DNA of 64,000 nt, from the NCBI GenBank assembly GCA_963813785.1, contig CAWFAJ010000002.1, positions 7,654 to 71,653 of the forward strand, read 5' to 3'. This DNA comes from an uncultured delta proteobacterium (lineage in GTDB: Bacteria; Desulfobacterota; Binatia; Binatales; Binataceae). Position numbers and translations under genes: made by a program. Numbering within the stretch: the first letter of the stretch is position 1; each line of letters opens with the position of its first letter. Below the pieces are notes generated by a model. The model was not told the origin of the DNA. It saw only the letters and a program-made list of their open reading frames with translations, and made no database searches. This document shows, in pieces, positions 13,946-60,735 of the stretch.

Positions 13946-15139
13946 TTACACGAGCATCCCGGCCTGCACCACGACGGGTCCGTCGCTCTTGGGAATATTC
14001 GGCTCGGGTTTGCGCTTCATCGCCTTTTCCAGGATCGGCGCCATCCGCTCGGCCTTCTGCCTGGCGCGCTTTTGTTCGCGCTCCTTGAACTCGGGCATGA
14101 CCTTTTCGGCGAACAGGCTGAGCGACGAGCAGATGTCCTCGTGCTTGTTGTTGCCCGCCTGCGAGATGAACACCACCTGGTCAACGCCGGCTTGCTCGAA
14201 TTCGCCAAGGCGCGTGCGAATCTGGTCGGGCGTTCCGACGCATGAGTTCGCCCCGTCCATACCCGGCAAATTGATCGGGCTGGTTTTGAAATTGTTCCAG
14301 ATACTCGTTTTGCCCGGCTGGTGCTGGCCAAACGCATAATGATGGCCAAGGGCGTACCCGAAAAACTTCAGCCCCTCTTCGCCCATCTTGCGCGCCCGCT
14401 CGGCGTCGTTGTCGCACATGAAGCCGGTGACGATCGCGATGTTCGCATTGACCGCGTATCCGATCGGCTCGCACTCATTCTCGAGCGTCGTGTAATAGTC
14501 GTTGACCCACTCCCGCGCCTCCTGCGGCGATACGAACGCGAACGTCAGCGCGCCGATTCCAAGCTTGGCCGCCAGATGAATCGTCTCGCGCCGCGAGCAT
14601 GCGACCCACAGCGGTGGATGCGGTTTCTGCACCGGCTTGGGCACCACGTTACGCACCGGCATCTTGAAGTACTTGCCCTCATGACCAAGAAACGGCTCCT
14701 CGACAAACATTCGCGCGATCGCACCCAGCGACTCCTGCCACATCGCGCGCTTGTCCGCGCGCGGGATGCAAAACCCGCCCAGCTCCAGCTCCGCCGACGA
14801 TTCACCGGTGCCGAACTCGACCCGCCCGCCGCTCACCAAATCCAGCGTCGCGATCCGCTCCGCGACGCGCGCCGGATGGTTGTAGCCCGGCGGCAGCAAC
14901 ACGATTCCGTGACCGAGCCGAATCTGCCTGGTGCGCTGACTCGCCGCGGCCAGGAAAATTTCGGGCGCCGACGAATGCGCGTACTCCTCGAGGAAGTGAT
15001 GCTCCACTTCCCACATATGGTCGAGGCCGAGCCGGTCCGCGAGTTCGACCTGATCGAGCGCATCCTGGAAGAGCTTCAGCTCCGCGCCCTCCTTCCATGG
15101 ACGCGGCAGCTGATGTTCATAAAAGGTTCCCAACTTCAT
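13946..15139 (-). CDS. LLM-class (luciferase-like) flavin/F420-dependent oxidoreductase
   Basis: 397 aa. Typical LLM N-terminus (MKLGTFYEHQLPRP...LGLDHMWEVEHHF) and a TIM-barrel-length sequence. Confidence 0.8.
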   Translation of the reverse strand: MKLGTFYEHQLPRPWKEGAELKLFQDALDQVELADRLGLDHMWEVEHHFLEEYAHSSAPEIFLAAASQRTRQIRLGHGIVLLPPGYNHPARVAERIATLDLVSGGRVEFGTGESSAELELGGFCIPRADKRAMWQESLGAIARMFVEEPFLGHEGKYFKMPVRNVVPKPVQKPHPPLWVACSRRETIHLAAKLGIGALTFAFVSPQEAREWVNDYYTTLENECEPIGYAVNANIAIVTGFMCDNDAERARKMGEEGLKFFGYALGHHYAFGQHQPGKTSIWNNFKTSPINLPGMDGANSCVGTPDQIRTRLGEFEQAGVDQVVFISQAGNNKHEDICSSLSLFAEKVMPEFKEREQKRARQKAERMAPILEKAMKRKPEPNIPKSDGPVVVQAGMLV

Positions 15140-15897
15140 AAGTGCAATTTTCTCCTTCGAGTTTTCGTCGATTCATTCTCCAAGCGCGTGCCACGCGCTC
15201 GCGTCTCTACTAACTCTAAGGACCGCTCGGCGCCGTCAACCGTGAAAAGCGTGCGCTCGACCATGTCGGTCAGTTCGTGCTTGCGCCGCTCAACCATCGC
15301 AGGCTCGAGCAGGTTCACGTCCCACAGCCGCCGGATCATCGACGCGATCGTGAAGTAGCCGATCGTGATCGCGTTGAGGCCCCACATGAAATGAAGCGGA
15401 TCTACATCGGTGCGGAATTCGCCGTCGCGCTGGCCGCGGAAAATAAAAGTGACCGCGGTGGCAAACAGCGGCGGCAGCCGCCGTTTGAGCACTTGCCGCC
15501 CGGTTCCGCTTTCGTCGGCCATCTCCTTCCACATGATTCGCACGAAATCGGGGTGGCCGGCGATAAAGTCGACCGTGTGCCCAACCGCCTGGCGCATCCG
15601 CTCCTGCCGGCTTTCGTGCTTCCAGGCGATTCCGTTGGCCGCATTCTCCAGACTCTCGAACATCTGGTCCAGCACCGCGAGATAGAGCTGTTGCTTGGAC
15701 GGAAAATGATGCAACAGCGACGGCGCCTTGACCCCGATTCGCCTGGCGATGTCTCGCAGGCTGGTGCCGCGATAGCCGCGCTCGGCGAACAGCGCCTGCG
15801 CCGCCTGCAGCACGCGCTCACGCGTATCGATGGGCCGTCGCAGGTCAACCACCCTGGCGCTGGCGCGCACGGCTGAATTTTTCGAAGCGCTTCGCAC
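15136..15897 (-). CDS. TetR/AcrR family transcriptional regulator
   Basis: TetR HTH (RERVLQAAQALFAERGYRGTSLRDIARRIGVKAPSLLHHFPSKQQL); overlaps the LLM start by 4 bp. Confidence 0.8.
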   Translation of the reverse strand: MRSASKNSAVRASARVVDLRRPIDTRERVLQAAQALFAERGYRGTSLRDIARRIGVKAPSLLHHFPSKQQLYLAVLDQMFESLENAANGIAWKHESRQERMRQAVGHTVDFIAGHPDFVRIMWKEMADESGTGRQVLKRRLPPLFATAVTFIFRGQRDGEFRTDVDPLHFMWGLNAITIGYFTIASMIRRLWDVNLLEPAMVERRKHELTDMVERTLFTVDGAERSLELVETRARGTRLENESTKTRRRKLHL

Positions 15898-16032
15898 TGA
15901 CTTTCCAAAAATTTATCTAACGTCTGTTAGGCTGTCAAACCGCGCCTGCGGACCGCCTTCATTTCGCTTTCGCTTTCTAACTTCGGGCGCATCGTAGTAA
16001 GTTCGGCTCGGCGGATTTCGCGTCCTCACATT

Positions 16033-16075
16033 TTACTGGGTGCAGGGGTCACCCCTGCCGCCAGTGAAAAAACCG
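16033..16075. repeat. REP/MITE-like palindromic element, copy 1 (module B, inverted orientation)
   Basis: TACTGGGTGCAGGGGTCACCCCTGCC is the reverse complement of GGGCAGGGGTGACCCCTGCACCCAGTA at 59565..59590; it contains a palindromic core. Confidence 0.6.
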
Positions 16076-16107
16076 CGCAGGTGATTATTCCTCGGGAGGT
16101 ATTCGCC

Positions 16108-17517
16108 ATGACCGAATTGTATTGGAAGCCGGCACACGAACTCGCCGCCATGATTCGCAAACGCGAAATCAAGCCCAGCGAATTGATGGAGCTGACCATC
16201 AGGAGAATCGAACAGACCAACCCCAAGCTCAACGCGTTTTGCGCGCTGCGCGCCGACGACGCGATGGCCGACGCGCGCGCGCTGGACGAAAAGGTCGCGC
16301 GGCGGGAAGAAGTCGGAGCGCTGGCGGGGTTGCCGCTCGGCGTCAAAGACCTCGAGGACGCCGTGGGCCTGCGGACCACCTACGGCTCGAAGCCGTTCAA
16401 GGACAACATGCCCAAGTCCGATTCGATCCAGGTCGCGCGGCTGAAAGCAGCCGGCGCAATCGTGATCGGCAAGACTAACGCGCCCGAGTTCGGCTACACC
16501 GCTTTCACCAAGAACCTGTTGTTCGGTGTCACCCGCAATCCATGGAATCTCGAGCGCACGCCCGGCGGATCGTCGGGCGGTAGCTCGGCCGCCATCGCCG
16601 GCGGCGTCGTACCGATCGCGACCGGCTCCGACGGCGGCGGGTCCGTGCGAATCCCTGCTTGTTATACTGGATGCTACGGGTTGAAACCGACCTTCGGCAG
16701 GATTCCGAACGACCCGACGCTCGGGATGCAACAATGGAACGACACCTCCGTGCATGGAGCGCTCACGCGCACCGTGCGCGACGCCGCGCTTTTCATGGAC
16801 GCAGTTGTCGGCTATCACCCGGCCGATCCCGACTCCGTACCGCATCCGGGAATTTCCTATCAGGCCATACTTGACCGCATCCCCAAAAAACTTCGCATCG
16901 CATTTCATCCCGACTTCGGCCAACTCGTGCAGCGCGACGTGGCGCGCGAAATCGCAAAAGCTGCCGCCGTGTTCAAGAACCTCGGCTACGATCTGACGAC
17001 CATCGATGACCCCGTGCCCGATACCGGCCGCGCCTGGATGCAAGTCGGCGCGACGCAAGGCTACGCGATGCTGCATGAATGGCTCGACAAGGATCGCGAG
17101 AATTTCGGGCGCGCGTTCACCACCGGCACCGAAGGCGCGCCTCGCGTTACGTGGAAGCATTATGGCGCGGCGTATCGACGCCGCCGCGAGTTCAACGATT
17201 GGTGCCAGCGCGTGTTCGAGCGCTTCGACTTGCTGCTGTGTCCCGTGCTTCCGACCGAGGCCTTTCCCGCGAAGGGTCCGATGCCGACCGAGATCAACGG
17301 CCAACCGCTCAAGGACCCGCTGAATGCCGTCGTGTTCACCTATCCATTCAACATGAGCGGCCATCCCGGCGCGTCGGTGCGCGCGGGACTCACCGACTCC
17401 GGCCTTCCCTGCGGATTGCAGATCGTTGCGGAGCGTTATCGCGAGGACCTTGTCCTGCAGGCTTCGTACGCGTACGAACAGGCGCGCCCCTGGAACAACA
17501 AATGGCCCGAGATCTAA
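16108..17517 (+). CDS. amidase (amidase signature family)
   Basis: GGAGG RBS. Signature stretch [14 protein letters not shown]...[12 protein letters not shown] with a Ser-cisSer-Lys triad context. Confidence 0.85.
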
Positions 17518-17584
17518 ACCCAGGAATAAGCTCTGAGGTCGGGTTCACGATCAGACACAACTTCCCCAAAAAAAGGAGGCCACC

Positions 17585-18076
17585 ATGGCGGATTTCAACG
17601 AGAAAGCGATGCCGGGACTCAGCGACAAACAGATGGAAGAGTTTCGCGCCAACGATAAGGCGCTGCGCGAATTCAACGATAAGCTGATCGAAGAGTTCCG
17701 CGCCAATGGCGGCAAGGTTCTCAGCGGCCCGTTCGTGGGCGCTCCGCTGCTTCTGCTGACTACGACCGGCGCGAAGAGCGGCCGTCCCACTACCACTCCG
17801 CTGGTGTACACCAGGGATGGCGATCGAATCGTTATAATCGCGTCGAAGGCCGGAGCGCCGACACATCCCGCCTGGTACCACAACCTCAAGGCTCACCCGA
17901 CGCCGACGATCGAGCTGGGGGTCGAACGCTTCCAGGCCAGGGCTGTCATTACCAGTGGCTCCGAGCGCGAGCGGCTGTTCAACGCCCAGGCCAAAGCGAT
18001 GCCCGCCTTTGTCGGCTACCAGAAGAACACCACCCGTCAAATCCCGGTCATCGTTCTGGAGCGTATCAAGTCGTAA
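17585..18076 (+). CDS. deazaflavin (F420)-dependent nitroreductase family protein (DUF385 / PNPOx-like)
   Basis: 163 aa; motifs LLLTTTGAKSGRPTTTPL, IIASKAGAPTHPAWYHNL and ITSGSERERLF are typical of this family. Confidence 0.75.
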   Translation: MADFNEKAMPGLSDKQMEEFRANDKALREFNDKLIEEFRANGGKVLSGPFVGAPLLLLTTTGAKSGRPTTTPLVYTRDGDRIVIIASKAGAPTHPAWYHNLKAHPTPTIELGVERFQARAVITSGSERERLFNAQAKAMPAFVGYQKNTTRQIPVIVLERIKS

Positions 18077-34062: not shown

Positions 34063-34095
34063 TTCAGAAGCGATCACGGTTTCGGGCATTACCCC

Positions 34096-34198
34096 GCCCG
34101 GGCAGAACACGCCCGAGCGCGAGTGCTGGTACATCTATACGGGCGCGGTGGACAAAGATTTCTTCACCGCCGACGCAATCGTAAAGGCCACCAATTAG
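34096..34198 (+). pseudogene. 3' relic of a third DUF1329 paralog abutting the macB stop codon
   Basis: Translates to PGQNTPERECWYIYTGAVDKDFFTADAIVKATN*, homologous to the last ~35 aa of the two intact copies (PGQHTPERECWYVNMGAVDKDFCSVKAMVAAAP*). It is followed by the same conserved intergenic unit. Confidence 0.6.
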
Positions 34199-34413
34199 CA
34201 AATTAGCTAGATAAATCAGGAGGCTTTGCGTCCATCCAATAGCTCGAACGGGGCGACGCAGCGAAAAAGCTGCGCCGCCCCACGCTCTTCCGCCTCGGCA
34301 AATCAGCCTGTAGAGTTAAAAAACAATTCGATAATATGATGGATATATCCTTGACTTCAGAAAATCTCGCGATTATGAATTAGAGCTCTAAAGACGGATA
34401 GGAGATTATATTA

Positions 34414-35706
34414 ATGGCCAAGCATGCACTGGGGAAGATATTGCTGGGCGTGGGAATGTTAATGCTCTTATGTCTCAGCGTGGCATCAACAAATGCGGCG
34501 GTGAAGCCAGGTGACACCATAACACCTGAAAACGCGGCGCAGGTCAAAGATCTGGTTTCGCCCGGCGTGTATTACGCGGTGACTCATGGAATGCACATGG
34601 AGATCGTGCCCCCCGAGCGGATCGACTGGCCACCGCCTTACAGGGAGGCGACAGAAAAATATTCCTCGCAGGCGCGGCTCAGTAACGATCATCGCAGCTT
34701 GGTCGGCTACGTCGCCGGCCAGCCGTTTCCGTTGATCGATCCTAACGACCCCTATGTGGGGTCGAAAGTCATGTGGAACAACGTGTTTCGGCCCATGTCG
34801 AGCGATGACTACGACCTGCGCTTCTACGATTGCCAGAGCCAGTACGTTCGTCCGGGCCAGGACCAGAACGTGATCGAGGACTTGGAGATCGGTCATTACG
34901 CCGGATACAACCTGTTCGGACGGACCGAGGTCGAGCCGATGCCGGTCGATCCCGACTTTAAACAGTCGGGGCGGATGTGGCTATTCAGTCTATACCCCGT
35001 GCTTTCGCCGGCGGACCAACGCGGCGTCGGAATAGTCCGCTATCGCTACGTGGATCCGAACCGCGGCGACGACACCTGGGATTGGCAGCCCGGCACCCGT
35101 CGCGTGCGGCGCCTGAACGAGGCGATAAACAGCAGCGCGACGGGAGCGCAGAGCTTCGACCCCGACCATTATGCAGGCTTCAACCCCAAGACCGAGCAGT
35201 ACAACTACAAGTTCCTGGGTGAGAGGCAGATGCTCGCGAGCGTGCATGCGCAGCATTCGCCCGAAGATACTTGCCCCTACGATGGCGGTGCGACCGCATG
35301 CCCCGAGGCTTGGGAGATGCGCGACGTATACATCGTCGAGGCGCTGCCCCGGCGCGATTCGAACAATCCGGGTGCGCTCGACAAGTTGACCAACGTCTAT
35401 GTGGACACCGAATTAGGCTTCAACCCGTATATCGACACTTACGACCAGAAAGGTCGTTTGTGGCGCTCGCACATCTACTGGCTGACCTATCGCGACCGCC
35501 CGGTGCCCGATGCCCGCGTGGCGATCTACCCGTTCAAGCGGGAGTTCATAGTGGGTGCGGCCTCGATCGACATGCAGGCCAACTTCTCGACAATGTGTTA
35601 CCTGCCCGGCCAGCACACGCCTGAGCGCGAATGCTGGTACGTCAACATGGGGGCGGTCGATAAGGATTTCTGCTCGGTGAAGGCGATGGTGGCCGCAGCT
35701 CCTTGA
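34414..35706 (+). CDS. DUF1329 family periplasmic protein (LolA-like fold), copy 1
   Basis: Signal peptide, then the motif block QPFPLIDPNDPYVGSKVMWNNVFRP that I recall from DUF1329; 430 aa. Confidence 0.65.
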   Translation: MAKHALGKILLGVGMLMLLCLSVASTNAAVKPGDTITPENAAQVKDLVSPGVYYAVTHGMHMEIVPPERIDWPPPYREATEKYSSQARLSNDHRSLVGYVAGQPFPLIDPNDPYVGSKVMWNNVFRPMSSDDYDLRFYDCQSQYVRPGQDQNVIEDLEIGHYAGYNLFGRTEVEPMPVDPDFKQSGRMWLFSLYPVLSPADQRGVGIVRYRYVDPNRGDDTWDWQPGTRRVRRLNEAINSSATGAQSFDPDHYAGFNPKTEQYNYKFLGERQMLASVHAQHSPEDTCPYDGGATACPEAWEMRDVYIVEALPRRDSNNPGALDKLTNVYVDTELGFNPYIDTYDQKGRLWRSHIYWLTYRDRPVPDARVAIYPFKREFIVGAASIDMQANFSTMCYLPGQHTPERECWYVNMGAVDKDFCSVKAMVAAAP

Positions 35707-35923
35707 GCGAGTTGGCTATATAAATCAGGGGCTTTACGTCCCTCTAAATTGCTCGAACGGGGCGGTGCAGCGAAAAGCTGCGCCGCCTCGCGCTTTTCTT
35801 CCGTCCGCAGATCAGATTGTAGAATTAAGGAACAATCTGATAATATTTGCAGTCGCATACTTGACTTGGGAAAATTTCGGGGGCCAAAATTAGAATTCCT
35901 AAGACGAACAGGAGGTTGTACTA

Positions 35924-37219
35924 ATGGCCAGGCATGCTTTGGGGAAGATATTGCCGGGCGTGGCGACGCTAACACTCTTGTGTCTCATCGTGGCGCCAGC
36001 AAATGCGACAGTGAAGCCGGGGGACACCATAACGCCCGAAAACGCGGCGCAGGTCAAAGACCTGGTTTCGCCCGGGGTGTATTACGCGGTGGCTCATGGA
36101 ATGCACATGGAAATCATACCTACCGAGCGGATCGATTGGCCGCCGCCTTACAGAGAGGCGACGGAAAAGTATTCCTCGCAGGTACGGCTCACTAACGATC
36201 ATCGCAGCATGGTCGGCTACGTCGCCGGCCAGGCATTTCCGCTGATCGATCCGAACGACCCTTATGTAGCGACGAAAATCATGTGGAACAACGTGTTCCG
36301 TCCGATCAGCACTGACGACTACGATCTGCGCTTCTACGATTGCCAGAGCCAGTACGTTCGTCCCGGCCAGGAACAGAACATCATCAACGACATCGAGATC
36401 GGTCATTACGCCGGGTACAACCTCTTCGGACGGACCGAAGTCGAGCCAATGCCGGTCGATCCGGACTTCAAGCAGTCGGGGCGCATGTGGTTGTTCGCTC
36501 TCTATCCGCTGCTCGCGCCGCAGGAATCGCGCGGCCAAGGCCTGATCCGCTATCGCTACGCGGATCCGAAACGCGGCGACGACAGCTGGGATTGGCAGCC
36601 CGGCACCCGTCGTGTGCGGCGCCTGAACGAGGCGATGCTCTCCACCGCGACCGGTGCGCAGAGCTACGATCCTGATCACTATTCAGGCTTCAACCCCAAG
36701 ACCGAGCAGTACAACTACAAATTCCTGGGTGAGCGGCAGATGCTCGCGACCGTGCATGCGCAGCATTCGCCCGAACAGACTTGCGCTTATGATGGCGGTG
36801 CAACCGCATGCCCCGAGGCTTGGGAGCTGCGTCACATGTACATCGTCGAGGCGACACCCCGGCGCGATATCGGCGAGGCAGGCAGCGCGCTCGACAAGTT
36901 GACCGACGTCTATCTGGACACCGAATTATGTTTCGAGCCGTACGTCGACACCTACGACCAGAAGGGTCATTTGTGGCGCGCGCACATCTACTGGCTGGCC
37001 TATCGTGACCGCCCGGTGCCCGATGCCCGCGTGGCGATCTACCCGTTCAAGCGGGAGTTCGTGGTCGGCGCAGCTTCGATCGACACGCAGGCTAATTTCT
37101 CGACAATGTGTTACCTGCCCGGCCAGCACACGCCTGAGCGCGAATGCTGGTACATCAACATGGGGGCGGTCGATAAGGATTTCTGCTCGGTGAAGGCGAT
37201 GGTGGCCGCAGCTCCTTGA
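35924..37219 (+). CDS. DUF1329 family periplasmic protein, copy 2 (tandem paralog, about 80% identical to copy 1)
   Basis: Colinear with copy 1 over its full length. The upstream intergenic region is also duplicated. Confidence 0.65.
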   Translation: MARHALGKILPGVATLTLLCLIVAPANATVKPGDTITPENAAQVKDLVSPGVYYAVAHGMHMEIIPTERIDWPPPYREATEKYSSQVRLTNDHRSMVGYVAGQAFPLIDPNDPYVATKIMWNNVFRPISTDDYDLRFYDCQSQYVRPGQEQNIINDIEIGHYAGYNLFGRTEVEPMPVDPDFKQSGRMWLFALYPLLAPQESRGQGLIRYRYADPKRGDDSWDWQPGTRRVRRLNEAMLSTATGAQSYDPDHYSGFNPKTEQYNYKFLGERQMLATVHAQHSPEQTCAYDGGATACPEAWELRHMYIVEATPRRDIGEAGSALDKLTDVYLDTELCFEPYVDTYDQKGHLWRAHIYWLAYRDRPVPDARVAIYPFKREFVVGAASIDTQANFSTMCYLPGQHTPERECWYINMGAVDKDFCSVKAMVAAAP

Positions 37220-37512
37220 GCCCGCGCTTCAAGCTGCCTGATTGATTGCTGAAACAGGCGCGGAGCAGAGCGGTCAGTCGCCGTGGCGCTCCGCGCTCTG
37301 GTTTTTCCACAGCGCGCGAAGGCAAGTCGTTTACATACGCCGGCTCCCGCAATATATTCCGCGTATCGCGCGATTGCGGTCTTTGCACCACAAGCGCGAT
37401 CGCAGCAAAGGTCCCGTGTCCGAAGCCGGCGCGGATACGCCTCGCAGGTCCAACGAGTCGTTCTGCGCCGGCAACTTTCCCGCCCCACCAGGCGCATCGC
37501 CGCGCCGCCGGG

Positions 37513-38559
37513 TCAGACCTTGAAGCGGATGTGAATCATGTCGCCGTCGCGCATCACGTAGTCGCGGCCCTCGAGTCTGAGCTTGCCGGCTTCCTTGACC
37601 TTCGCGTCGGACTTGTGGATGGCAAAATCCTCGTAGCTGACAACTTCGGCCCGGATGAATCCGCGCGCGATATCTGTGTGGATTACGCCGGCGGCATCGA
37701 GCGCCGACTCGCCGCGGCGCAGCGGCCATGCATGCGCCTCGGGTTCGCCGGCGGTGTAGAAAGTGATCAGCCCGAGATGGTTGAAGAGCGCGCCGATCAG
37801 CCGATCGCGCGCGGGCGCGTCGAGTCCCGCGTCCTTGAGCATCTCCTTCTGGCCGGCCTCGTCGAGTTCCCACAATTCCGACTCGAAAGCGGCCGCGAGC
37901 CTGAACACCTCGAATCCGTGCGCGCGGACCGCGGCGCGCTCGGCGTCGGTGACATCGGCGGCCGCGCGTTCCATCTCGCAGTTGACGGTGACCAGCGCGG
38001 GCTTTCGCGAAAGAAACCCGAAGCTCGAAAATGCCTGCGCTTCCTGCGCCGTCAGTTCGAGCAGTCGCAGCGCTTTGCCGTCGCCGAGCCATGCGATCAC
38101 TTTCTCGAGCGCCGCGCGTTCGAAGTCGCTGCCGCCCTTCTCCTTCTTCAGCCGCTCGAGGCGGCGTTCGGCTTGATCGAAGTCGGCGAACACCAGCTCG
38201 CCCTCGATGCTTTCGAGCGTCGCGACCAGATCTTTTTCCATGCCGGCGAATTGCGGAATCACGATCAGCAGCGCGTCCATGTCGCGCACCAGCGGCAGCA
38301 GACTCGGATCGAGCGCAGCGCCCTCCTTCTGCTCTTTGGGATTTGGCGCGAAGTCGAGGATGGTGAGCTCGACCGGAATCTTTTTCTTCGAACCGTACGC
38401 CGATTCAAGAAAATCCAGACGCGGATCCGCGACCTTGATTTGTCCCGGGCGCGCACGATTGCGGCCCTCGGCCGCGCCCGCAATCGGCGCGAGTCCTGTC
38501 AGTGCGTGAAATACGGTTGATTTCCCGGCGCCGCGTGCGCCGATGATCCCGGTCTTCAA
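37513..38559 (-). CDS. ychF: YchF/Obg-family GTP/ATP-binding protein with a C-terminal TGS domain
   Basis: P-loop GARGAGKST. C-terminal block (IHTDIARGFIRAEVVSYEDF...EAGKLRLEGRDYVMRDGDMIHIRFKV) aligns with E. coli YchF. The G1 motif is divergent. Confidence 0.75.
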   Translation of the reverse strand: MKTGIIGARGAGKSTVFHALTGLAPIAGAAEGRNRARPGQIKVADPRLDFLESAYGSKKKIPVELTILDFAPNPKEQKEGAALDPSLLPLVRDMDALLIVIPQFAGMEKDLVATLESIEGELVFADFDQAERRLERLKKEKGGSDFERAALEKVIAWLGDGKALRLLELTAQEAQAFSSFGFLSRKPALVTVNCEMERAAADVTDAERAAVRAHGFEVFRLAAAFESELWELDEAGQKEMLKDAGLDAPARDRLIGALFNHLGLITFYTAGEPEAHAWPLRRGESALDAAGVIHTDIARGFIRAEVVSYEDFAIHKSDAKVKEAGKLRLEGRDYVMRDGDMIHIRFKV

Positions 38560-38764: not shown

Positions 38765-38840
38765 GCCACCCTAGCTCAGTTGGTAGAGCAGCTGATTCGT
38801 AATCAGCAGGTCGCCGGTTCGAATCCGGCGGGTGGCTCCA
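38765..38840 (+). tRNA. tRNA-Thr (anticodon CGT)
   Basis: 76-nt cloverleaf. Acceptor stem GCCACCC/GGGTGGC, D-arm GCTCAGTTGGTAGAGC, anticodon loop TTCGTAA, T-arm GCCGGTTCGAATCCGGC, CCA end encoded. Confidence 0.85.
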
Positions 38841-39312: not shown

Positions 39313-41511
39313 ATGAAACTGCAGCATCGACTGATTTCCTGCCGCGAGCGAGTCGCAAGACAAAGCACCTGGCGGTCAATCCTAAGAATCCATGCCTTGG
39401 CACTGCTGGCGTGGGGGTTTGCTGGCTCGCCGAGCGCATTGGCGTTCGACGTAAAGAGCGCAAAGCTGATCGATAAGGGTTTCAAGCTTTTCACCCAGGA
39501 AACATTCAAGGGCAACGGCCGTACCTGCTCAACCTGCCATATACCCAAGGACGACTACACGATCAGCCCGGCGGATTTTCCCACGCTGAGCGCCCATGAC
39601 AGGAACCTCGTGCTGGCGACACACAATTCGCAGCTCGAAAACCAGAACTTGGTAAATCAATTCGCCCTGTTCAACATCACTAACGAAACGCCGGCCGCGA
39701 GCGGAAATGGTACCACGCCGACCGGTCCGTTCCGCGCCTCGATGCAGCTAAGCGGATTGGCGCTCACCACGCTGAACGACTGCCCGAATGCGACATTGAT
39801 TGCGGCGGCCACCGACACCGGCGCGACCGCCGAGATCACAACCGTCACGCCTCCCCTCTTCCCGTTTGTGGTAAACGAACTCGTAAGAATCGAGGGAGTC
39901 AGCGTCGCCGGCTACAATGGCAGTACTTTTGAGATCTCCAGCGTAATCAGCCCCACCACATTCCAGTACACGACGTTGACTGGAGCCGATATCACCGGAC
40001 TCCCCTCGGCAGGGCCCGGCGGCGGTGTCAGCGGGCTGCCCACTCCACCGACTACTACTACCGGGTCGGGAGTGTGTTCCACTGCGCCTAATTTCGTGAC
40101 ATCCCCAACCACCACAGGCACCCGGTTCATAGAGCTCGGTTGGGCGGGAGACGGCGCACCCGTCGACCCCACGCTTTTCGAAGTTGGCAAACCTCGCGAC
40201 TACGCGGATTGCGTAACCTCCGTCAACAACGCTAATTCTAACCCCAACGTCCTCGGCCCGGTGTTGAATGCGTTCTCGACCGGAGCCGTCAGGCACCATT
40301 TCACGCGCACCAATTCCCGCGTGCCTGGAAAGGATTTCCGCTGCCCGACCTCCGCTGAGTTGAATGCGCTGGCGGCATTTCAAGAGTACCTCGGGCGCCA
40401 ATTCCCATCTGGTACACCTCTCGAACTCGCCTTGGAAGGAGGAACAACTTTCCCGGGAACACAAGTCAGCTCGTTGCAGCCCGTGATCACCTTTAACGAT
40501 TCCACGGCGGAGACGGGCAAGGCGATATTCTTGAATCCGAGCGCGGCTTGCAATTTCTGCCACTTCAATGGCGGCGCGAGCATGAGTACAACCCAGGTAA
40601 AAACGGAGCCGTTAGGAGACCCGCCGCTGCCGTTTCCCGGTCGCAACGAGAACAACTCGCAACTCGTGAACGTCTTAACCGACACCACCTTTATTATTCC
40701 GTCAACCGGACAGACGGTCACTGGCGGGCTTGACGGCTTGACGCCGGTGACCATTGGCAATGATCCCGGCGACGGAACTCCTTTCAGCGACAAGCATGGC
40801 GGGTTCATACCCATATTCAACGTCCAGTCAATTATAGAAGCGCCGCGCAAAAAGAGTTTTTTCCACAATGGTTCCTTCACTACCAGCGTGGAGGACGCGG
40901 CGTCGTTCTACTTTGGTAACCCTACGGTCAATATTTCGGGCAGCACACTCATCACGCCCGGTTTCGACCTCGCCAACGGCAATTTCGCGGTTGGCACCAA
41001 CCAGGACGGCTCACTAGTTACCGTCGCGTCAGGGTTGCCAAACCCACTGCCAAGAGCAGCCGGGGGAGAAACCGGCACCCAAGCCCTTGTGCAACTTGCC
41101 GGCACCTACTTTCCTTCCGATTCGGTGGCCGGCAACGTGCTGACTTCGCCGGGTGGGCAGGACGTGCTCAACACGCTTGGGTTCTTCCTGAGGGCGCTCA
41201 ACGTGGTTTACAGCATCGCCGATTGCGAGCGGCTGGTGGACGATACGGTCAGCCGTCTCCATGCGGGCTTGCCGACACAGGTGCCGGTCCTCAACTGCAC
41301 CACGGACTTGGGCGATGTGGACCGCGTCATTGCGGGCGCGCGTGTGACCGTGCCGGACAACTACCTCGCCGTCCAGACGCAGGCGCAGGAACTCCAGGGC
41401 CAGTTGAAGAAGTATGCCAAGCATGGCAATCGCGTGAAGTTGATAGGGATTACTAACCAGCTGAAAGCCATGAGGGAGTCGATTGCATCGATCTCGCCAG
41501 ACCTGCCGTGA
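39313..41511 (+). CDS. di-haem c-type cytochrome, CCP/MauG-like, with a large Thr/Gly-rich insertion
   Basis: Signal peptide. First CxxCH sits in the CCP-type context FKGNGRTCSTCHIP. A second CxxCH (AACNFCHFNGG) lies about 370 aa later, against about 145 aa in canonical CCPs. 732 aa in total. Confidence 0.55.
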   Translation: MKLQHRLISCRERVARQSTWRSILRIHALALLAWGFAGSPSALAFDVKSAKLIDKGFKLFTQETFKGNGRTCSTCHIPKDDYTISPADFPTLSAHDRNLVLATHNSQLENQNLVNQFALFNITNETPAASGNGTTPTGPFRASMQLSGLALTTLNDCPNATLIAAATDTGATAEITTVTPPLFPFVVNELVRIEGVSVAGYNGSTFEISSVISPTTFQYTTLTGADITGLPSAGPGGGVSGLPTPPTTTTGSGVCSTAPNFVTSPTTTGTRFIELGWAGDGAPVDPTLFEVGKPRDYADCVTSVNNANSNPNVLGPVLNAFSTGAVRHHFTRTNSRVPGKDFRCPTSAELNALAAFQEYLGRQFPSGTPLELALEGGTTFPGTQVSSLQPVITFNDSTAETGKAIFLNPSAACNFCHFNGGASMSTTQVKTEPLGDPPLPFPGRNENNSQLVNVLTDTTFIIPSTGQTVTGGLDGLTPVTIGNDPGDGTPFSDKHGGFIPIFNVQSIIEAPRKKSFFHNGSFTTSVEDAASFYFGNPTVNISGSTLITPGFDLANGNFAVGTNQDGSLVTVASGLPNPLPRAAGGETGTQALVQLAGTYFPSDSVAGNVLTSPGGQDVLNTLGFFLRALNVVYSIADCERLVDDTVSRLHAGLPTQVPVLNCTTDLGDVDRVIAGARVTVPDNYLAVQTQAQELQGQLKKYAKHGNRVKLIGITNQLKAMRESIASISPDLP

Positions 41512-57615: not shown

Positions 57616-58032
57616 ATGGCAAATCTCAAAGGAACCAAAACCCATCAGAACCTCAAGGATGCGTTCGCAGGCGAGAGCCAGGCTAATCGCCGCTATCTGT
57701 ATTTCGCCAAGATCGCCGACGTCGAAGGCCAGCCGGAAATCGCGGGCCTGTTTCGCGATACGGCCGAAGGCGAGACCGGACACGCCCACGGCCATCTCGA
57801 CTATCTGAAATCGGTCGGCGATCCGGCCACCGGCTTGCCGATCGGCGATTCGATGACGAACCTCAAGTCCGCGGTTCATGGCGAGACTCACGAGTACACC
57901 GACATGTACCCGGGGATGGCGAAGACGGCGCGCGAAGAGGGCTTCGCGGAAATTGCCGATTGGTTCGAAACTCTCGCCAAGGCCGAGAAGTCCCACGCGG
58001 GACGCTTCGCCAAGGCGCAGGGCACGCTCTAA
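57616..58032 (+). CDS. rubrerythrin-family di-iron protein (erythrin domain only, no rubredoxin domain)
   Basis: ExxH di-iron ligands ([17 protein letters not shown]) in a 138-aa ferritin-like fold. Confidence 0.85.
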
Positions 58033-58192
58033 GAGGGTATCGCAAACATCGCCAGCGGGCGGGCCTCCGAGAAGCCCGCCCGCTATTTCAACGGCGACGC
58101 CGCGCCGGACTGCGGTACGCGCGGTATCACGCCAGGCACGCACGAGCGCGCGCGCGCCCATATCGAAAAGTCCGCAGCCAGGATTTTTCCCG

Positions 58193-59494
58193 ATGGCCAA
58201 CCGAATCGAGGCCAGGCCGAGCGACGGCCTTTCCTACAATTCCACAGAAGCGAAGTACTGGGACCGCGCCGGACTGGACAAGGAAGTCGAGCGGGTGTTC
58301 GACATCTGTCACACCTGCCGCCTGTGCTTCAATCTTTGCCCGTCGTTCCCGGCGCTGTTCGACGCGACCGATCGCAACGACGGCGACGTGAGAGGGCTGA
58401 CGGCGGCCGAGAAAGAGCGCGTGATCGAGCTCTGCTACGGATGCAAACTGTGCGAGATCAAATGTCCCTACACGCCGCGCGACGGTCATGAGTTCCAGCT
58501 GGATTTCCCGCGCCTGATCCTTCGCGCCAAGGCGGTGAGCGCCAAGGAAGACGGCGTCAAGCTGCGCGAGCGGATCCTGGCCCGTCCCGATCAACTCGGC
58601 AAGGCGGGGGCGATGGCGCCGGCGCTGGCAAACTGGGGATGCCATCGGAAGTTTCAGCGCGTGATGATGGAAAAGCTGCTCGGGATCGATCGCGGCAAGC
58701 TGCTTCCCGACTTCGCCGCCGAGACTTTCGACCAGTGGCTCAGGCGCACCGGCCTGCCCGCAATCCCGGCGGAGCCGGCGGCGAAGGTCGCGATTTTCCC
58801 GACCTGTTTTGTCAATTACTACAACCCCGGGCCGGGCAAGGCGGCGGTCGAGGTATTTGCGAAAAACGGATGCGCGGTGAAATGCCCGAAGCAGAACTGC
58901 TGCGGGATGCCGGCGCTGGACGGCGGCGACGTCGAGTTCGCGCGCAAGGAAGCACGGGCGAATATCGATTCGATGCTGCCGCTGGTGCGCGAGGGCTACA
59001 AAATCGCGGCGATCAATCCGACCTGCTCGCTGATGATGCGCGCGGAATATCCCAACCTGCTCAGCGGCGACGAGGTCAGGGAGTTCGCCGCGGCGGTGGT
59101 CGATTCGCACGAGCTGCTCTACGAGCTGCATCGCGCCGGCAAGTTCAACAAGGAGTTTCTGTCCACGCCCGGCACTATCGCGTATCACGTCCCGTGCCAT
59201 CTCAAGGCCCAGGGTATCGGATTGCGCTCGCGCGACCTGATGCGCCAGATTCCAGGCGTGGAAGTAACCACAGTCGATGCATGCACGGCGCATGACGGGA
59301 CGTGGGCAATGAAAAAAGAGTTCTTCGCGCTCTCGATGAAATGGGGCGAGAAGGCCTTCACCGGGATGCGCGAAGCGGGAGCGCGAGTGATGGCGACCGA
59401 CTGTCCGCTGGCGGCAGTGCAAATCGAGCAGGCGACGGGAGTGCGTCCGCTTCATCCGCTGGAGGTGCTAGCGCGCGCGTACCAGCAGGGGTGA
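58193..59494 (+). CDS. Fe-S oxidoreductase with 2x[4Fe-4S] ferredoxin motifs and two CCG domains (heterodisulfide-reductase-related / GlpC-like)
   Basis: Start at MANRIEARP. CxxCxxCxxxCP x2, then two CCG domains (CCGMPALDGG; HVPCHL). The longer track ORF from 57878 overlaps rubrerythrin out of frame. Confidence 0.75.
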   Translation: MANRIEARPSDGLSYNSTEAKYWDRAGLDKEVERVFDICHTCRLCFNLCPSFPALFDATDRNDGDVRGLTAAEKERVIELCYGCKLCEIKCPYTPRDGHEFQLDFPRLILRAKAVSAKEDGVKLRERILARPDQLGKAGAMAPALANWGCHRKFQRVMMEKLLGIDRGKLLPDFAAETFDQWLRRTGLPAIPAEPAAKVAIFPTCFVNYYNPGPGKAAVEVFAKNGCAVKCPKQNCCGMPALDGGDVEFARKEARANIDSMLPLVREGYKIAAINPTCSLMMRAEYPNLLSGDEVREFAAAVVDSHELLYELHRAGKFNKEFLSTPGTIAYHVPCHLKAQGIGLRSRDLMRQIPGVEVTTVDACTAHDGTWAMKKEFFALSMKWGEKAFTGMREAGARVMATDCPLAAVQIEQATGVRPLHPLEVLARAYQQG

Positions 59495-59530
59495 CGATAC
59501 GCCGGAGCGTATGACGGGAGAACTTGATTA

Positions 59531-59590
59531 TATGCGGAACCCACCGTGGGTTCCGCACCTCCTTGGGCAGGGGTGACCCCTGCACCCAGT
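59531..59590. repeat. REP/MITE-like element, copy 2 (modules A+B)
   Basis: Palindrome TGCGGAACCCACCGTGGGTTCCGCA followed by the palindrome-containing GGGCAGGGGTGACCCCTGCACCCAGTA. Confidence 0.6.
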
Positions 59591-59737
59591 AGTAAGAAGA
59601 CGCGAAAATCTGCGCAGCGCATCTTTTCGCGACTACGCAATGGCAGGGCTGAGCCTCTGGGCGCAGTGAAAAGAGAAGAGAGAAGATGCGGGACTGCGTC
59701 CCGGTTAGAATTTCATCTGCTGCAAGGAGAATGACAA

Positions 59738-60319
59738 TTGAAGAGGATCACTTTTGAGGAAATACTTTCGCTGGGCGATTACGGACGCGTGCGCGAGCGG
59801 CTGCGGCCCTTGTTTATTCATGAGAAGGAACGGCGCCGGCTCCACGTCGGGTCGCATCTGACGCTGCTGTTCGAGAACCCGCAGACCGCGTGGTACCAGA
59901 TCGAGGAGATGATCAGGGCCGAGAAAATGACGGAGCGCGAGGCGATCGAGCACGAAATCGACACTTACAACGATCTGCTTCCGGCCGCGGGCGAAATTGC
60001 CGCGACGCTGTTAATTGAATACGCCGAGGCGCAGGAACGCGACGCCGCGTTGATCCGGCTGGTCGGCCTGGAACGCCATCTGTGGCTCAAGGCGGGCACC
60101 CAAAGGATCGCGGCCAGATTCGACGATCGCCAGATGTCAGAGGAAAGAATCAGCGCGGTGCAATTTGTCAGGTTCAGGCTGGAGGGCGTGGACGCATCCC
60201 GGTTTCTCGAACTCGCCGGCAAAGGCGAGGTATCGGTCCAGGCGGACCATCCGAGCCTGGCGGCACAGGGCGCGATCGAGGGATTGCTGGCAACCTCGCT
60301 CGCGGAGGATCTGCGCTAG
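59738..60319 (+). CDS. DUF3501-like conserved hypothetical protein
   Basis: 193 aa, acidic, no signal peptide. I recall DUF3501 genes commonly sitting next to rubrerythrin plus HdrD-like Fe-S oxidoreductase pairs. Confidence 0.45.
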   Translation: MKRITFEEILSLGDYGRVRERLRPLFIHEKERRRLHVGSHLTLLFENPQTAWYQIEEMIRAEKMTEREAIEHEIDTYNDLLPAAGEIAATLLIEYAEAQERDAALIRLVGLERHLWLKAGTQRIAARFDDRQMSEERISAVQFVRFRLEGVDASRFLELAGKGEVSVQADHPSLAAQGAIEGLLATSLAEDLR

Positions 60320-60335
60320 CGGGAGGGAGATTGAA

Positions 60336-60412
60336 TGTGAAACCCACCGTGGGTTTCACGCTTCCTTGGGCAGGGGTAACCCCTGCACCGCAGGGCTGAG
60401 CCCTGCACCCAC
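60336..60412. repeat. REP/MITE-like element, copy 3 (modules A+B plus an extra hairpin)
   Basis: GTGAAACCCACCGTGGGTTTCAC, GGGCAGGGGTAACCCCTGCACC and GCAGGGCTGAGCCCTGC. Same orientation as copy 2. Confidence 0.6.
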
Positions 60413-60418
60413 CGTTAA

Positions 60419-60690
60419 GGCCGCCCGCCGATGGCGGGCGGTCGTTGGCACGACGGGCCGTGCGATGGTCTTGGTCCAGTGCCCTCTCCTTGTCCGAGGA
60501 GAGGGTTAGGGAGAGGTGCCACGATCGAAAGAGAATGGCGACGCGGGCGTTGAACCTCTCCCGGCGCGCTAGGAATCGCGCCGACCTCTCCTCGGACAAG
60601 GAGAGGTTAGGTCGTGTCTCCCCCGGTACAAACCGGCGTCCGGTTATGCAGAGCTCTCCCTGAGAGGCGAGGAAAATACAGACGCGATGG
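60419..60690. repeat. array of at least 6 short GC-rich hairpins built around GGAGAGG/CCTCTCC motifs
   Basis: GCCGCCCGCC-gat-GGCGGGCGG; CCTCTCC-ttgtccga-GGAGAGG (60483-60504) and its exact reverse complement at 60586-60607; GGCGCG-ctaggaat-CGCGCC; AACCGG-cgt-CCGGTT; additional CCTCTC/GAGAGG copies. Confidence 0.5.
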
Positions 60691-60700
60691 GGCACAAAGA

Positions 60701-60735
60701 GGAACACCGAATCCGGCAATCCGGATTCGGTGTTC
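60701..60735 (-). terminator. perfect 15-bp-stem hairpin downstream of the NHL pseudogene
   Basis: GAACACCGAATCCGG-caa-CCGGATTCGGTGTTC, about 35 bp past the stop at 60770. Confidence 0.6.

Follow-up and report, generated by a model that had tools for sequence, protein, structure and literature searches.

The window studied here is a stretch of 64,000 nucleotides on contig CAWFAJ010000002.1 (assembly GCA_963813785.1) from an uncultured member of the Binataceae, and in it a short palindrome, hereafter hairpin B, recurs at three intergenic sites. Site 1 lies between the starts of two divergent genes assigned by Pfam, TetR on the minus strand (15136-15897) and an amidase on the plus strand (16108-17517). 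Site 2 lies downstream of a CCG/4Fe-4S gene and upstream of a DUF3501 gene, both on one strand, and site 3 follows DUF3501 and faces a convergent gene for a 523-aa protein, the latter taken from the gene table of the related locus L187. Hairpin B has the form GCAGGG(G/C)T(G/A)A(C/G)CCCTGC followed by ACC, and the window contains four copies (16042-16058, 59567-59583, 60370-60386 and 60390-60406), one degenerate copy and one half copy. We consider it likely that hairpin B is a module, module B, of a lineage-wide family of non-coding modular repeats of the Binatia (phylum Binatota) that spreads as selfish DNA and belongs with the repetitive extragenic palindromes (REPs), bacterial interspersed mosaic elements (BIMEs) and BOX elements.

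When up to two mismatches were allowed, the 15-mer CAGGGGTRACCCCTG matched the window at 16043-16057, 59568-59582, 60371-60385 and 60391-60405. Only 0.12 matches were expected from 100 shuffles, none of which reached the observed four. The original prediction had placed the palindrome at three sites; all three were recovered, and 60391-60405 is an additional, fourth place. A second palindrome, AACCCACCGTGGGTT (hairpin A), had been expected beside copies 2 and 3 and is indeed present at 59538-59552 and 60341-60355 (0.03 expected by chance), although the spacer between the two palindromes measures 10 nt and not the 8 nt first given. A repeat finder grouped four 22-nt copies as family D6 and matched the composites 59526-59586 and 60329-60389 at 85% identity over 61 nt. 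Hairpin A differs between these composites at two pairs, both compensated (GCGGAA..TTCCGC versus GTGAAA..TTTCAC). By BLAST against related loci, the only window parts recurring many times elsewhere were 16034-16062, 59527-59638, 59680-59710 and 60329-60440. Several components had been overlooked, namely the tandem copy at 60390-60406, the degenerate copy at about 59643-59672, the half copy at 59485-59494 and repeated modules at 59599-59638, 59686-59710, 60417-60443 and 16072-16093. The parts of the three sites are as follows.

15941-16092, no strand assigned: 152-nt replacement segment, consisting of copy 1 and 92 nt of unique DNA (BLAST of L182, L183, L185 and L186 against the window; gene tables)
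16034-16041, minus strand: copy 1 tail ACCCAGTA, an unpaired ACC plus CA, the CA complementary to loop TG (sequence)
16042-16058, minus strand: copy 1 hairpin B (GCAGGGGTGACCCCTGC on the minus strand), 7-bp stem, loop TGA (sequence)
16072-16093, minus strand: copy 1 5′ partner module A2 (GGAATAATCACCTGCGCGG) (BLAST; 16 A2-B arrangements among the loci)
59485-59494, plus strand: left half of B (GCAGGGGTGA), whose TGA serves as stop codon for the CCG/4Fe-4S gene 57878-59494 (sequence; orthologue comparison)
59495-59533, plus strand: copy 2 leader (..ACTTGATTATAT; family consensus ACTTnATTgAAT after a purine-rich run)
59534-59556, plus strand: copy 2 hairpin A (GCGGAACCC-ACCGT-GGGTTCCGC) (97% standard pairs; compensated changes at 3 pairs)
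59557-59566, plus strand: copy 2 pyrimidine-rich spacer ACCTCCTTGG
59567-59583, plus strand: copy 2 hairpin B (covariance model R1, 96.1 bits for 59505-59598)
59584-59598, plus strand: copy 2 tail ACCCAGTAGTAAGAA
59599-59638, plus strand: 3′ cassette C4 (GACGCGAAAATCTGCGCAGCGCATCTTTTCGCGACTACGC), a hairpin
59643-59672, plus strand: degenerate B copy and tail (GCAGGGCTGAGCCTCTGGGCGCAGTGAAAAG) (read from the sequence; intact counterpart in L188/L045)
59686-59710, plus strand: 3′ cassette C1 (ATGC-hairpin-GGTTAGAA; family consensus ATGCGGGACTTCGTCCCTGTTAGAAC)
60320-60336, plus strand: copy 3 leader remnant (CGGGAGGGAGATTGAAT), beginning one base past the DUF3501 stop codon
60337-60359, plus strand: copy 3 hairpin A (GTGAAACCC-ACCGT-GGGTTTCAC)
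60360-60369, plus strand: copy 3 spacer GCTTCCTTGG
60370-60386, plus strand: copy 3 hairpin B, loop TAA
60390-60406, plus strand: copy 4 hairpin B (GCAGGGCTGAGCCCTGC), with a stem pair changed from G-C to C-G, head-to-tail with copy 3
60407-60443, plus strand: tail ACCCACCGTT and 3′ cassette C3 (AAGGCCGCCCGCCGATGGCGGGCGGTC), a GC-rich hairpin

Copy 1 as a whole reads A2-(13 nt)-B-tail on the minus strand (16033-16093), and BLAST against all loci confined the repeated DNA within 15941-16107 to this segment. Elsewhere A2 has the form AATCACCTGCGCGGTGGGCG and stands immediately before B, whereas in copy 1 13 extra nucleotides (16059-16071) intervene; covariance model R1 matches 16027-16135 on the minus strand with 33.7 bits. 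Site 2 runs half-B, leader, A, B, C4, degenerate B, C1. Site 3 runs leader, A, B, B, C3; an unrelated pair of inverted repeats and the native terminator come next, in that order. At 59686-59757, C1 supplies a purine-rich stretch and an ATG (AGAAGATGCGGGAC..) that open a 22-codon open reading frame (ORF) overlapping the DUF3501 start; the ATG is conserved among C1 copies, and the ORF is probably meaningless.

A pattern scan for GCAGGGSTNASCCCTGCACC in one genome per species, with 8-kb stretches taken as loci, matched at least 119 stretches. Further copies elsewhere had been set beforehand as a test of the original prediction, and the motif is not private to the window. Nearly all of the matches came from Candidatus Binatus/Binataceae or from MFD metagenome-assembled genomes (MAGs) labelled ‘uncultured delta proteobacterium’, and the matches listed often held two to four copies per 8 kb. 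The window's own TetR homologues, as named by NCBI, likewise point to Candidatus Binatus (Binataceae, Binatia, Candidatus Binatota). The window itself holds 4-6 copies at three loci in 64 kb, which extrapolates, roughly, to a few hundred copies per genome. Seven stretches lay on viral contigs, some of them with ordinary Binatia-like composites; the sequence context of the matches, ORFs left aside, contained no mobilising element. The B hairpin with an ACCC tail was also found in Polymorphobacter (Alphaproteobacteria) and similar genomes (L007, L038, L082, L100, L107 and L192), where it follows a different 5′ motif, GCCTCCGGCGG, and forms inverted, REPIN-like doublets (for example in L100). One core hairpin is thus common to two distant phyla.

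To describe the module grammar we read 159 B copies in context. The commonest unit begins with a purine-rich run (GGGGAAGGGGAAATC), followed by ACTTnATTgAAT and hairpin A (GTGAAACCC-n5-GGGTTTCAC), and continues through the spacer gCTTCCTTsG into hairpin B (GCAGGGGTGACCCCTGC) and an unpaired ACC. After the ACC come a tail, CAGTATTAAGAGAAG (also given as CAGTATTAAG), and one or more interchangeable hairpin cassettes, of which five were distinguished.

C1: ATGC-hairpin-TGTTAGAAC
C2: AATCGCAAAATGGCGAGGACGCCATTTTGCTCTCAGG
C3: AAGGCCGCCCGCCGTTGGCGGGCGCGGCC
C4: GACGCGAAAATCTGCGCAGCGCATCTTTTCGCGAC
C5: GCGCAAAGTTGCGCG..GCGC.ACTTTGC

The order and orientation of the modules are fixed (A, B, C, all direct). 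Alternative hairpins, A2 (AATCGCCTGCGCGGCGGGCG) or A3 (GCGGGGCTGCGCGCCCCGC), can replace A before B, and B also occurs alone or repeated head-to-tail. The 5′ partner of B was A in 90 copies, A2 in 16, A4 in 7 and A3 in 4, and the arrangements included A-B-C1 (24), A-B (22), A-B-C2 (at least 20), A2-B-C5 (5) and solo B (11). Units are about 115-170 nt long and non-coding. The peptide AGVTPAP, which the original prediction had ascribed to the module, is frame 1 of the module read off the sequence. As a family these repeats are new and previously undescribed; a literature search found no paper with the core sequence or linking Binatota to repetitive extragenic palindromes, and nothing relevant for Binatia transposases. 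The family is also atypical, having a directional modular grammar, no GTAG/CGTC tag and, in Binatia, no inverted doublets.

We then compared sites 2 and 3 with their orthologues. Searching for loci that encode DUF3501 relatives gave 62 loci; among 53 orthologous DUF3501 loci most were empty and about ten carried differing module sets. In the empty loci the CCG gene extends about 16 codons further than in the window, its TGA overlaps the DUF3501 ribosome-binding site, and a conserved terminator hairpin lies about 25 nt after the DUF3501 stop. In the window, L122 and L137 the CCG gene ends in ..CAGGGGTGA, the left half of B. The DUF3501 gene likewise ends in the left half of B in L137, and in the ATGTGA of module A in L128 and L134. 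A unit can take the place of a gene's 3′ end and provide the stop codon. Counted across the loci, there were 30 left halves of B, which end in TGA, and 6 right halves, an excess that fits the keeping of the part that was turned into coding sequence and stop codon. An exact-protein look-up of the CCG gene returned no record.

Closely related loci differ in their modules as well. A-B-C1 follows DUF3501 in L123, L125 and L126, and L127 has a single A-B after DUF3501 and B-C4-B-C1-B-C1 upstream of it. In L187, which is 98-99% identical to the window, site 2 contains a second B-C4 unit plus 64 nt, so that the window unit 59565-59641 is duplicated there; the single unit of the window is best read as a recombinant between two B-C4 units of the L187 type. 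In L188 (96.7% identical), site 2 carries another A subfamily, and site 3 differs in its mosaic and in its stop codon. Presence/absence and module swaps at orthologous loci were thus seen even at 97-99% nucleotide identity, with loci empty, filled or differently filled; such polymorphism between strains had been proposed as a check of the original prediction. These comparisons demonstrate gain, loss and reshuffling between close relatives, with effects on neighbouring genes.

The same comparisons bear on the other half of the original prediction, which had called the repeat REP/MITE-like. If the units were classical miniature inverted-repeat transposable elements (MITEs), that is, deletion derivatives of a DDE-type insertion sequence (IS) moved by cut-and-paste, they should carry terminal inverted repeats and be flanked by target-site duplications. 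Small size, lack of coding capacity, dispersal and polymorphism between strains would all suit a MITE. The unit ends, however, GGGGAAGGGGAAATCAC... and ...CTGTTAGAAC (or other cassettes), are not mutual inverted repeats, filled sites show no duplicated flank relative to empty ones, module content varies and single modules occur alone, and no IS with matching ends was found in the 1.23 Mb of sampled loci. With neither terminal repeats nor target-site duplications to be seen, a MITE identity is largely refuted and, in our judgement, very unlikely. The REP-like half of that prediction held up, since the repeats are GC-rich compensated hairpins that are extragenic, lie mostly 3′ of genes and donate stop codons.

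Site 1 has been remodelled too. In L182 (92-95% identical) the amidase gene is followed by an HD-domain gene and then by TetR, and in place of the 684 nt of L182 that carry the HD-domain gene the window has 152 nt with the repeat. L186 (98-99%) keeps the HD gene and lacks the amidase, and L183 lacks both. A TetR promoter-like site, TTGACA-17-TAAATT (15938-15910), lies just outside the breakpoint. At this site we also weighed the explanation that the copy 1 palindrome is the operator of the adjacent TetR repressor and that the other copies mark the same regulon. Its appeal is a perfect 7-3-7 palindrome within a 210-nt divergent TetR/amidase region. Yet the orthologous TetR loci L182, L183, L185 and L186 (82-99% identity) have no upstream B module, which refutes the operator for practical purposes; in addition, the promoter-like site falls outside the inserted segment, and B follows unrelated genes in many genomes. 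We regard the chance of a TetR operator as negligible.

Beyond the repeat, the comparison of 15941-18075 with L182, L183 and L186 showed the amidase gene, the HD-domain gene and two more genes (for a 289-aa protein and, in L186, a DOPA-dioxygenase fragment) present or absent in varying combinations, in relatives that are 92-99% identical in nucleotides over their common parts. Judged from these alignments, this is a small hypervariable island beside a TetR/luciferase-like monooxygenase operon.

We next considered where the units lie relative to genes, with flank orientation taken from a local coding-frame test. Units occur at many loci in many genomes, mostly immediately 3′ of a gene with the same orientation: coding sequence on the element’s 5′ side was co-oriented 93 times and opposite 45 times. 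Where the spacer was co-directional, the element was in sense orientation 38 times and antisense 11 times (p ~1e-4, normal approximation). The 76 fully classified sites comprised 49 co-directional, 17 convergent and 10 divergent ones. The original prediction had put every copy between convergent or co-directional gene ends, which is right for copy 2 (co-directional) and copy 3 (convergent) and wrong for copy 1, one of the divergent exceptions, which lies between 5′ ends. The median distance from the upstream stop codon to B was 48 nt, about the length of leader, hairpin A and spacer in a full unit, and at site 3 and in its orthologues the units stand between the stop codon and the native terminator. 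A crude ORF filter placed 26 of 160 copies ‘inside genes’, mostly in spurious ORFs made by the repeat itself.

Other repeats share these spacers. After DUF3501, 60482-60517 (CCCTCTCCTTGTCCGAGGAGAGGGTTAGGGAGAGGT) and its inverted partner 60584-60611 (ACCTCTCCTCGGACAAGGAGAGGTTAGG), about 65 nt apart, form a different palindromic repeat, with a related piece in L105; it has the look of an inverted doublet from a second REP-type family. Other, unrelated families of short repeats (GTCATCCTGAGCGAAGCGAAGGAAC.. and CCTCCTTCGGCTTCGCTCAGGACAGGCTCT) occur in the relatives’ spacers (on both sides of DUF3501 in L120/L121; in L127 and L137; and in L021, L041 and L081), and three independent loci fuse the CCTCCTTCGGCTTCGCTCAGGACAGGCTCT repeat directly to the left half of B (GCAGGGGT[GA]A|CCTCCTTCGG). 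The presence of several families suggests that these spacers act as sinks for repeats.

The hairpins themselves are under structural constraint. In hairpin B, with its 7-bp stem and 3-nt loop, 1293 of 1309 alignment cells were Watson-Crick and 99.6% were paired; in hairpin A the figure was 896 of 936, with compensated changes at three pairs. The central 5-mer of B was GTGAC in 126 copies, CTGAG in 25, GTAAC in 19 and CTAAG in 10, and only two copies had unpaired combinations. RNAalifold recovered both hairpins from the alignment, and the folding energies of the two composites were -37.3 kcal/mol (z -4.5) and -75.2 kcal/mol (z -6.5).

When pairs of alignment columns were ranked by mutual information, pairs outside the hairpins came first. 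In hairpin A, the third base of the loop covaries with the spacer base two before B (G-C in 45 and C-G in 33 sequences, with two exceptions in 80), and this pair holds on ATGAAA, GTGAAA, GTGGAA and TTGAAA stems. The pairs flanking it are C-G and a position with G·U 50, G-C 6 and A-U 5. In copy 2, spacer bases T64-G65-G66 are complementary to loop bases G46-C45-C44 (last two digits of the coordinates), and in the subfamily with the loop TCCGC the spacer is CCGCGG, giving four contiguous loop-spacer pairs. With its linker of 6-7 nt, such a pairing could form an H-type pseudoknot on hairpin A. An alternative hairpin A′ (positions 43-49 with 59-65 of alignment A1) was counted and proved far weaker than hairpin A, and the pseudoknot reading is preferred for that reason. 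There is also a three-way link between hairpin A position 4, its partner and spacer base 3, which were A:T:T in 60 of 80 sequences and G:C:C in 18, while the other two depart from this at a base other than the spacer base; together with the invariant neighbours this could reflect three parallel pyrimidine-motif triples, and equally one inherited linked change.

Hairpin B has a comparable relation to its tail: TGA loops go with ACC-CA/CG, TAA loops with ACC-TTA, and the long loops TGCG and TGCA with ACC-CGCA, the pairs including U-A 42 and U·G 22. A 3-nt linker cannot span a stem of 7-8 bp, so this pairing would require contact in trans, a surrounding protein complex or a different conformer. 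Taken as one structure, the two hairpins and the two loop-flank helices had 97.4% of cells paired in a 69-sequence alignment, against 36-53% in a control with the partners slid by 1-3 columns. Leader-spacer and leader-tail pairings, inspected by eye and by mutual information, gave no consistent covariation. The wobble pairs of the loop-flank helices are possible on the element’s sense strand only, and together with the covariation this indicates that a strand-specific folded single strand, either single-stranded DNA (ssDNA) or RNA, matters. The covariation of loops and flanks is the single feature that could set the family apart from ordinary repeats. More speculatively, and with low expectations, we suggest that the unit may be a strand-specific folded nucleic acid serving either as a guide-like code for an ssDNA transposase or recombinase that mobilises untagged REPs, or as a mobile RNA module for 3′-end protection.

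These observations raise the question of whether a functional structured RNA of mRNA 3′ regions, for example an exonuclease-blocking or terminating double hairpin with the pseudoknot on hairpin A, drives the spread, with DNA mobility secondary. Covariation of loop A and spacer on four stem backgrounds, wobbles that work in sense only, a linker that sterically allows the pseudoknot, the sense bias close behind upstream stop codons and the position of site 3 and orthologue units ahead of the native terminator are all what such an RNA would lead one to expect. It accounts poorly for the one third of copies that have a gene start on their 5′ side and for the ten in divergent promoter regions, copy 1 included, and positions are not conserved among close relatives. 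The stems have no excess of G·U over A·C (6 versus 11), and the loop B-tail pairing is impossible in cis. Nor do the modules carry a U-tract terminator signature: an intrinsic terminator was considered and is not supported, because there is no plus-strand U-tract site at the modules, the only strong site being the native hairpin at 60702-60735, and none at copy 1. In Rfam the window gave a single match at gathering score, a tRNA, and the best permissive hit in 59400-60600 had E = 0.56 (16.5 bits). We therefore think an RNA-driven spread rather improbable, though a more serious contender than a MITE.

We favour the view that the units are non-autonomous selfish DNA of the REP/BIME/BOX kind. New copies would arise by a hairpin-dependent, strand-specific single-strand process, for which the leading candidate enzyme, not found in the sampled DNA, is of the HUH/Y1 type acting in trans, and existing copies would be reshuffled by recombination between modules. 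The stable hairpins, when co-transcribed, would join the mRNA 3′ region, and a side effect on 3′-end stability or operon polarity is probable.

Searches for the enzyme were negative. A REP-associated tyrosine transposase (RAYT) was found neither by tblastn with an E. coli RayT query in 0.95 Mb (the window and loci L001-L119) nor by a six-frame scan for the Y..NP motif in the 1.23 Mb of sampled loci. Together these searches give a weak negative that leaves room for a RAYT elsewhere in the genomes. ORFs between inverted B pairs encode FUR, rubrerythrin, NmrA and similar proteins (Pfam), and clustering of the locus ORFs yielded only metabolic paralogues and no recurrent transposases. We also rejected an integron attC site, suggested by GTTAGAA in C1, because the core-site consensus is lacking, there are no arrays and the neighbours are ordinary metabolic genes.

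Four points weigh against spread as selfish DNA. No transposase of any kind stood beside about 200 copies or elsewhere in the 1.23 Mb sampled. At L127, the one simple filled site, the element replaces about 20 nt, and comparison of filled with empty loci showed no target-site duplication or clean insertion boundary, so that transposition itself is not demonstrated. Recombination or gene conversion could lie behind much of the polymorphism. Finally, G·U pairs confined to the sense strand, covariation between loops and flanks, and the bias in orientation are as compatible with selection on RNA as with selection on ssDNA.

Three further features of the window are unrelated to the repeats. At 34093-38520, after a MacB-type ABC transporter gene, three tandem paralogous genes lie about 1510 bp apart and are 76-92% identical in parts; two encode DUF1329/LolA-like lipoproteins (34414-35706 and 35924-37219), and the ORF of the third (about 37246-38520) has no Pfam match. 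A 732-aa ORF at 39313-41511 has coding-like composition and no Pfam match. The single tRNA gene lies at 38765-38837.

Binatota is an abundant uncultured phylum of soil and peat, known to us from MAGs only. Its repeats have practical consequences: they are contig break points in assembly and binning, they affect gene calling through spurious AGVTPAP ORFs and through altered C-termini and stop codons of real genes, and they are relevant to strain typing. Their fast turnover deletes or truncates genes and uncouples operon partners. The family shows that REP-type elements occur outside the GTAG and CGTC super-families, and if the loop-flank complementarity does reflect recognition by a mobilising enzyme, it would offer a handle on how REPs spread without a dedicated RAYT.

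Compared with known systems, the units share the broad features of REPs, being short stable hairpins that are dispersed and mostly extragenic, with a preference for co-directional and convergent spacers near the upstream 3′ end. REPs are described as GC-rich extragenic hairpins that lie near the 3′ end of the upstream ORF in co-directional or convergent spacers, donate stop codons and fall into super-families tagged GTAG or CGTC (Di Nocera et al. 2013, PMC3733652). The likeness extends to a GC-rich hairpin of 17 nt flanked on one side by a short unpaired tail, and to high copy number, extragenic placement near upstream 3′ ends, stop donation, strand asymmetry and subfamilies differing in stem, loop and tail (PMC3733652). 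Several properties set the Binatia repeats apart. A conserved GTAG (GTGG)/CGTC tag is absent from the foot of the hairpin, where the conserved unpaired flank is instead ACC(C) on the 3′ side, or GGGT 5′ on the other strand; no RAYT was found in the sampled DNA; and inverted REP doublets were not seen in the Binatia loci, B being single or head-to-tail in a fixed mosaic where REPs form head-to-head dimers. The host, moreover, is a candidate phylum outside the coverage of the survey (PMC3733652).

REPs and the ends of IS200/IS605 elements are recognised as strand-specific folded ssDNA, and complementarity to a guide determines where they are cut; in IS608 a guide tetranucleotide pairs with the cleavage site, and CA or CT 3′ of the hairpin are REP cleavage sites (PMC8266576). 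By analogy with IS200/IS605 subterminal hairpins and REPtrons, the Binatia units would depend on one folded strand, on loop bases and on complementarity outside the hairpin. They differ in that the 3′ flank is complementary to the hairpin loop and not to the 4 nt 5′ of the stem, and in that no Y1 gene was seen.

Like the BIMEs of E. coli, the units are mosaics of REP-like hairpins with a few conserved motifs, in combinations that vary by locus and strain. Successive REPs in BIMEs alternate in orientation; such alternation was not seen in the Binatia loci, where the modules keep one order and one direct orientation, and there is no sequence similarity. The BOX elements of S. pneumoniae (boxA-boxB(n)-boxC) are directional, modular, non-coding intergenic elements of about 100-200 nt that fold strongly and are not known to have a transposase. 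The Binatia repeats resemble BOX in being directional and modular with a variable number of internal modules. They differ from it in sequence and host, and in that their modules are individually perfect hairpins with compensated changes that also circulate singly.

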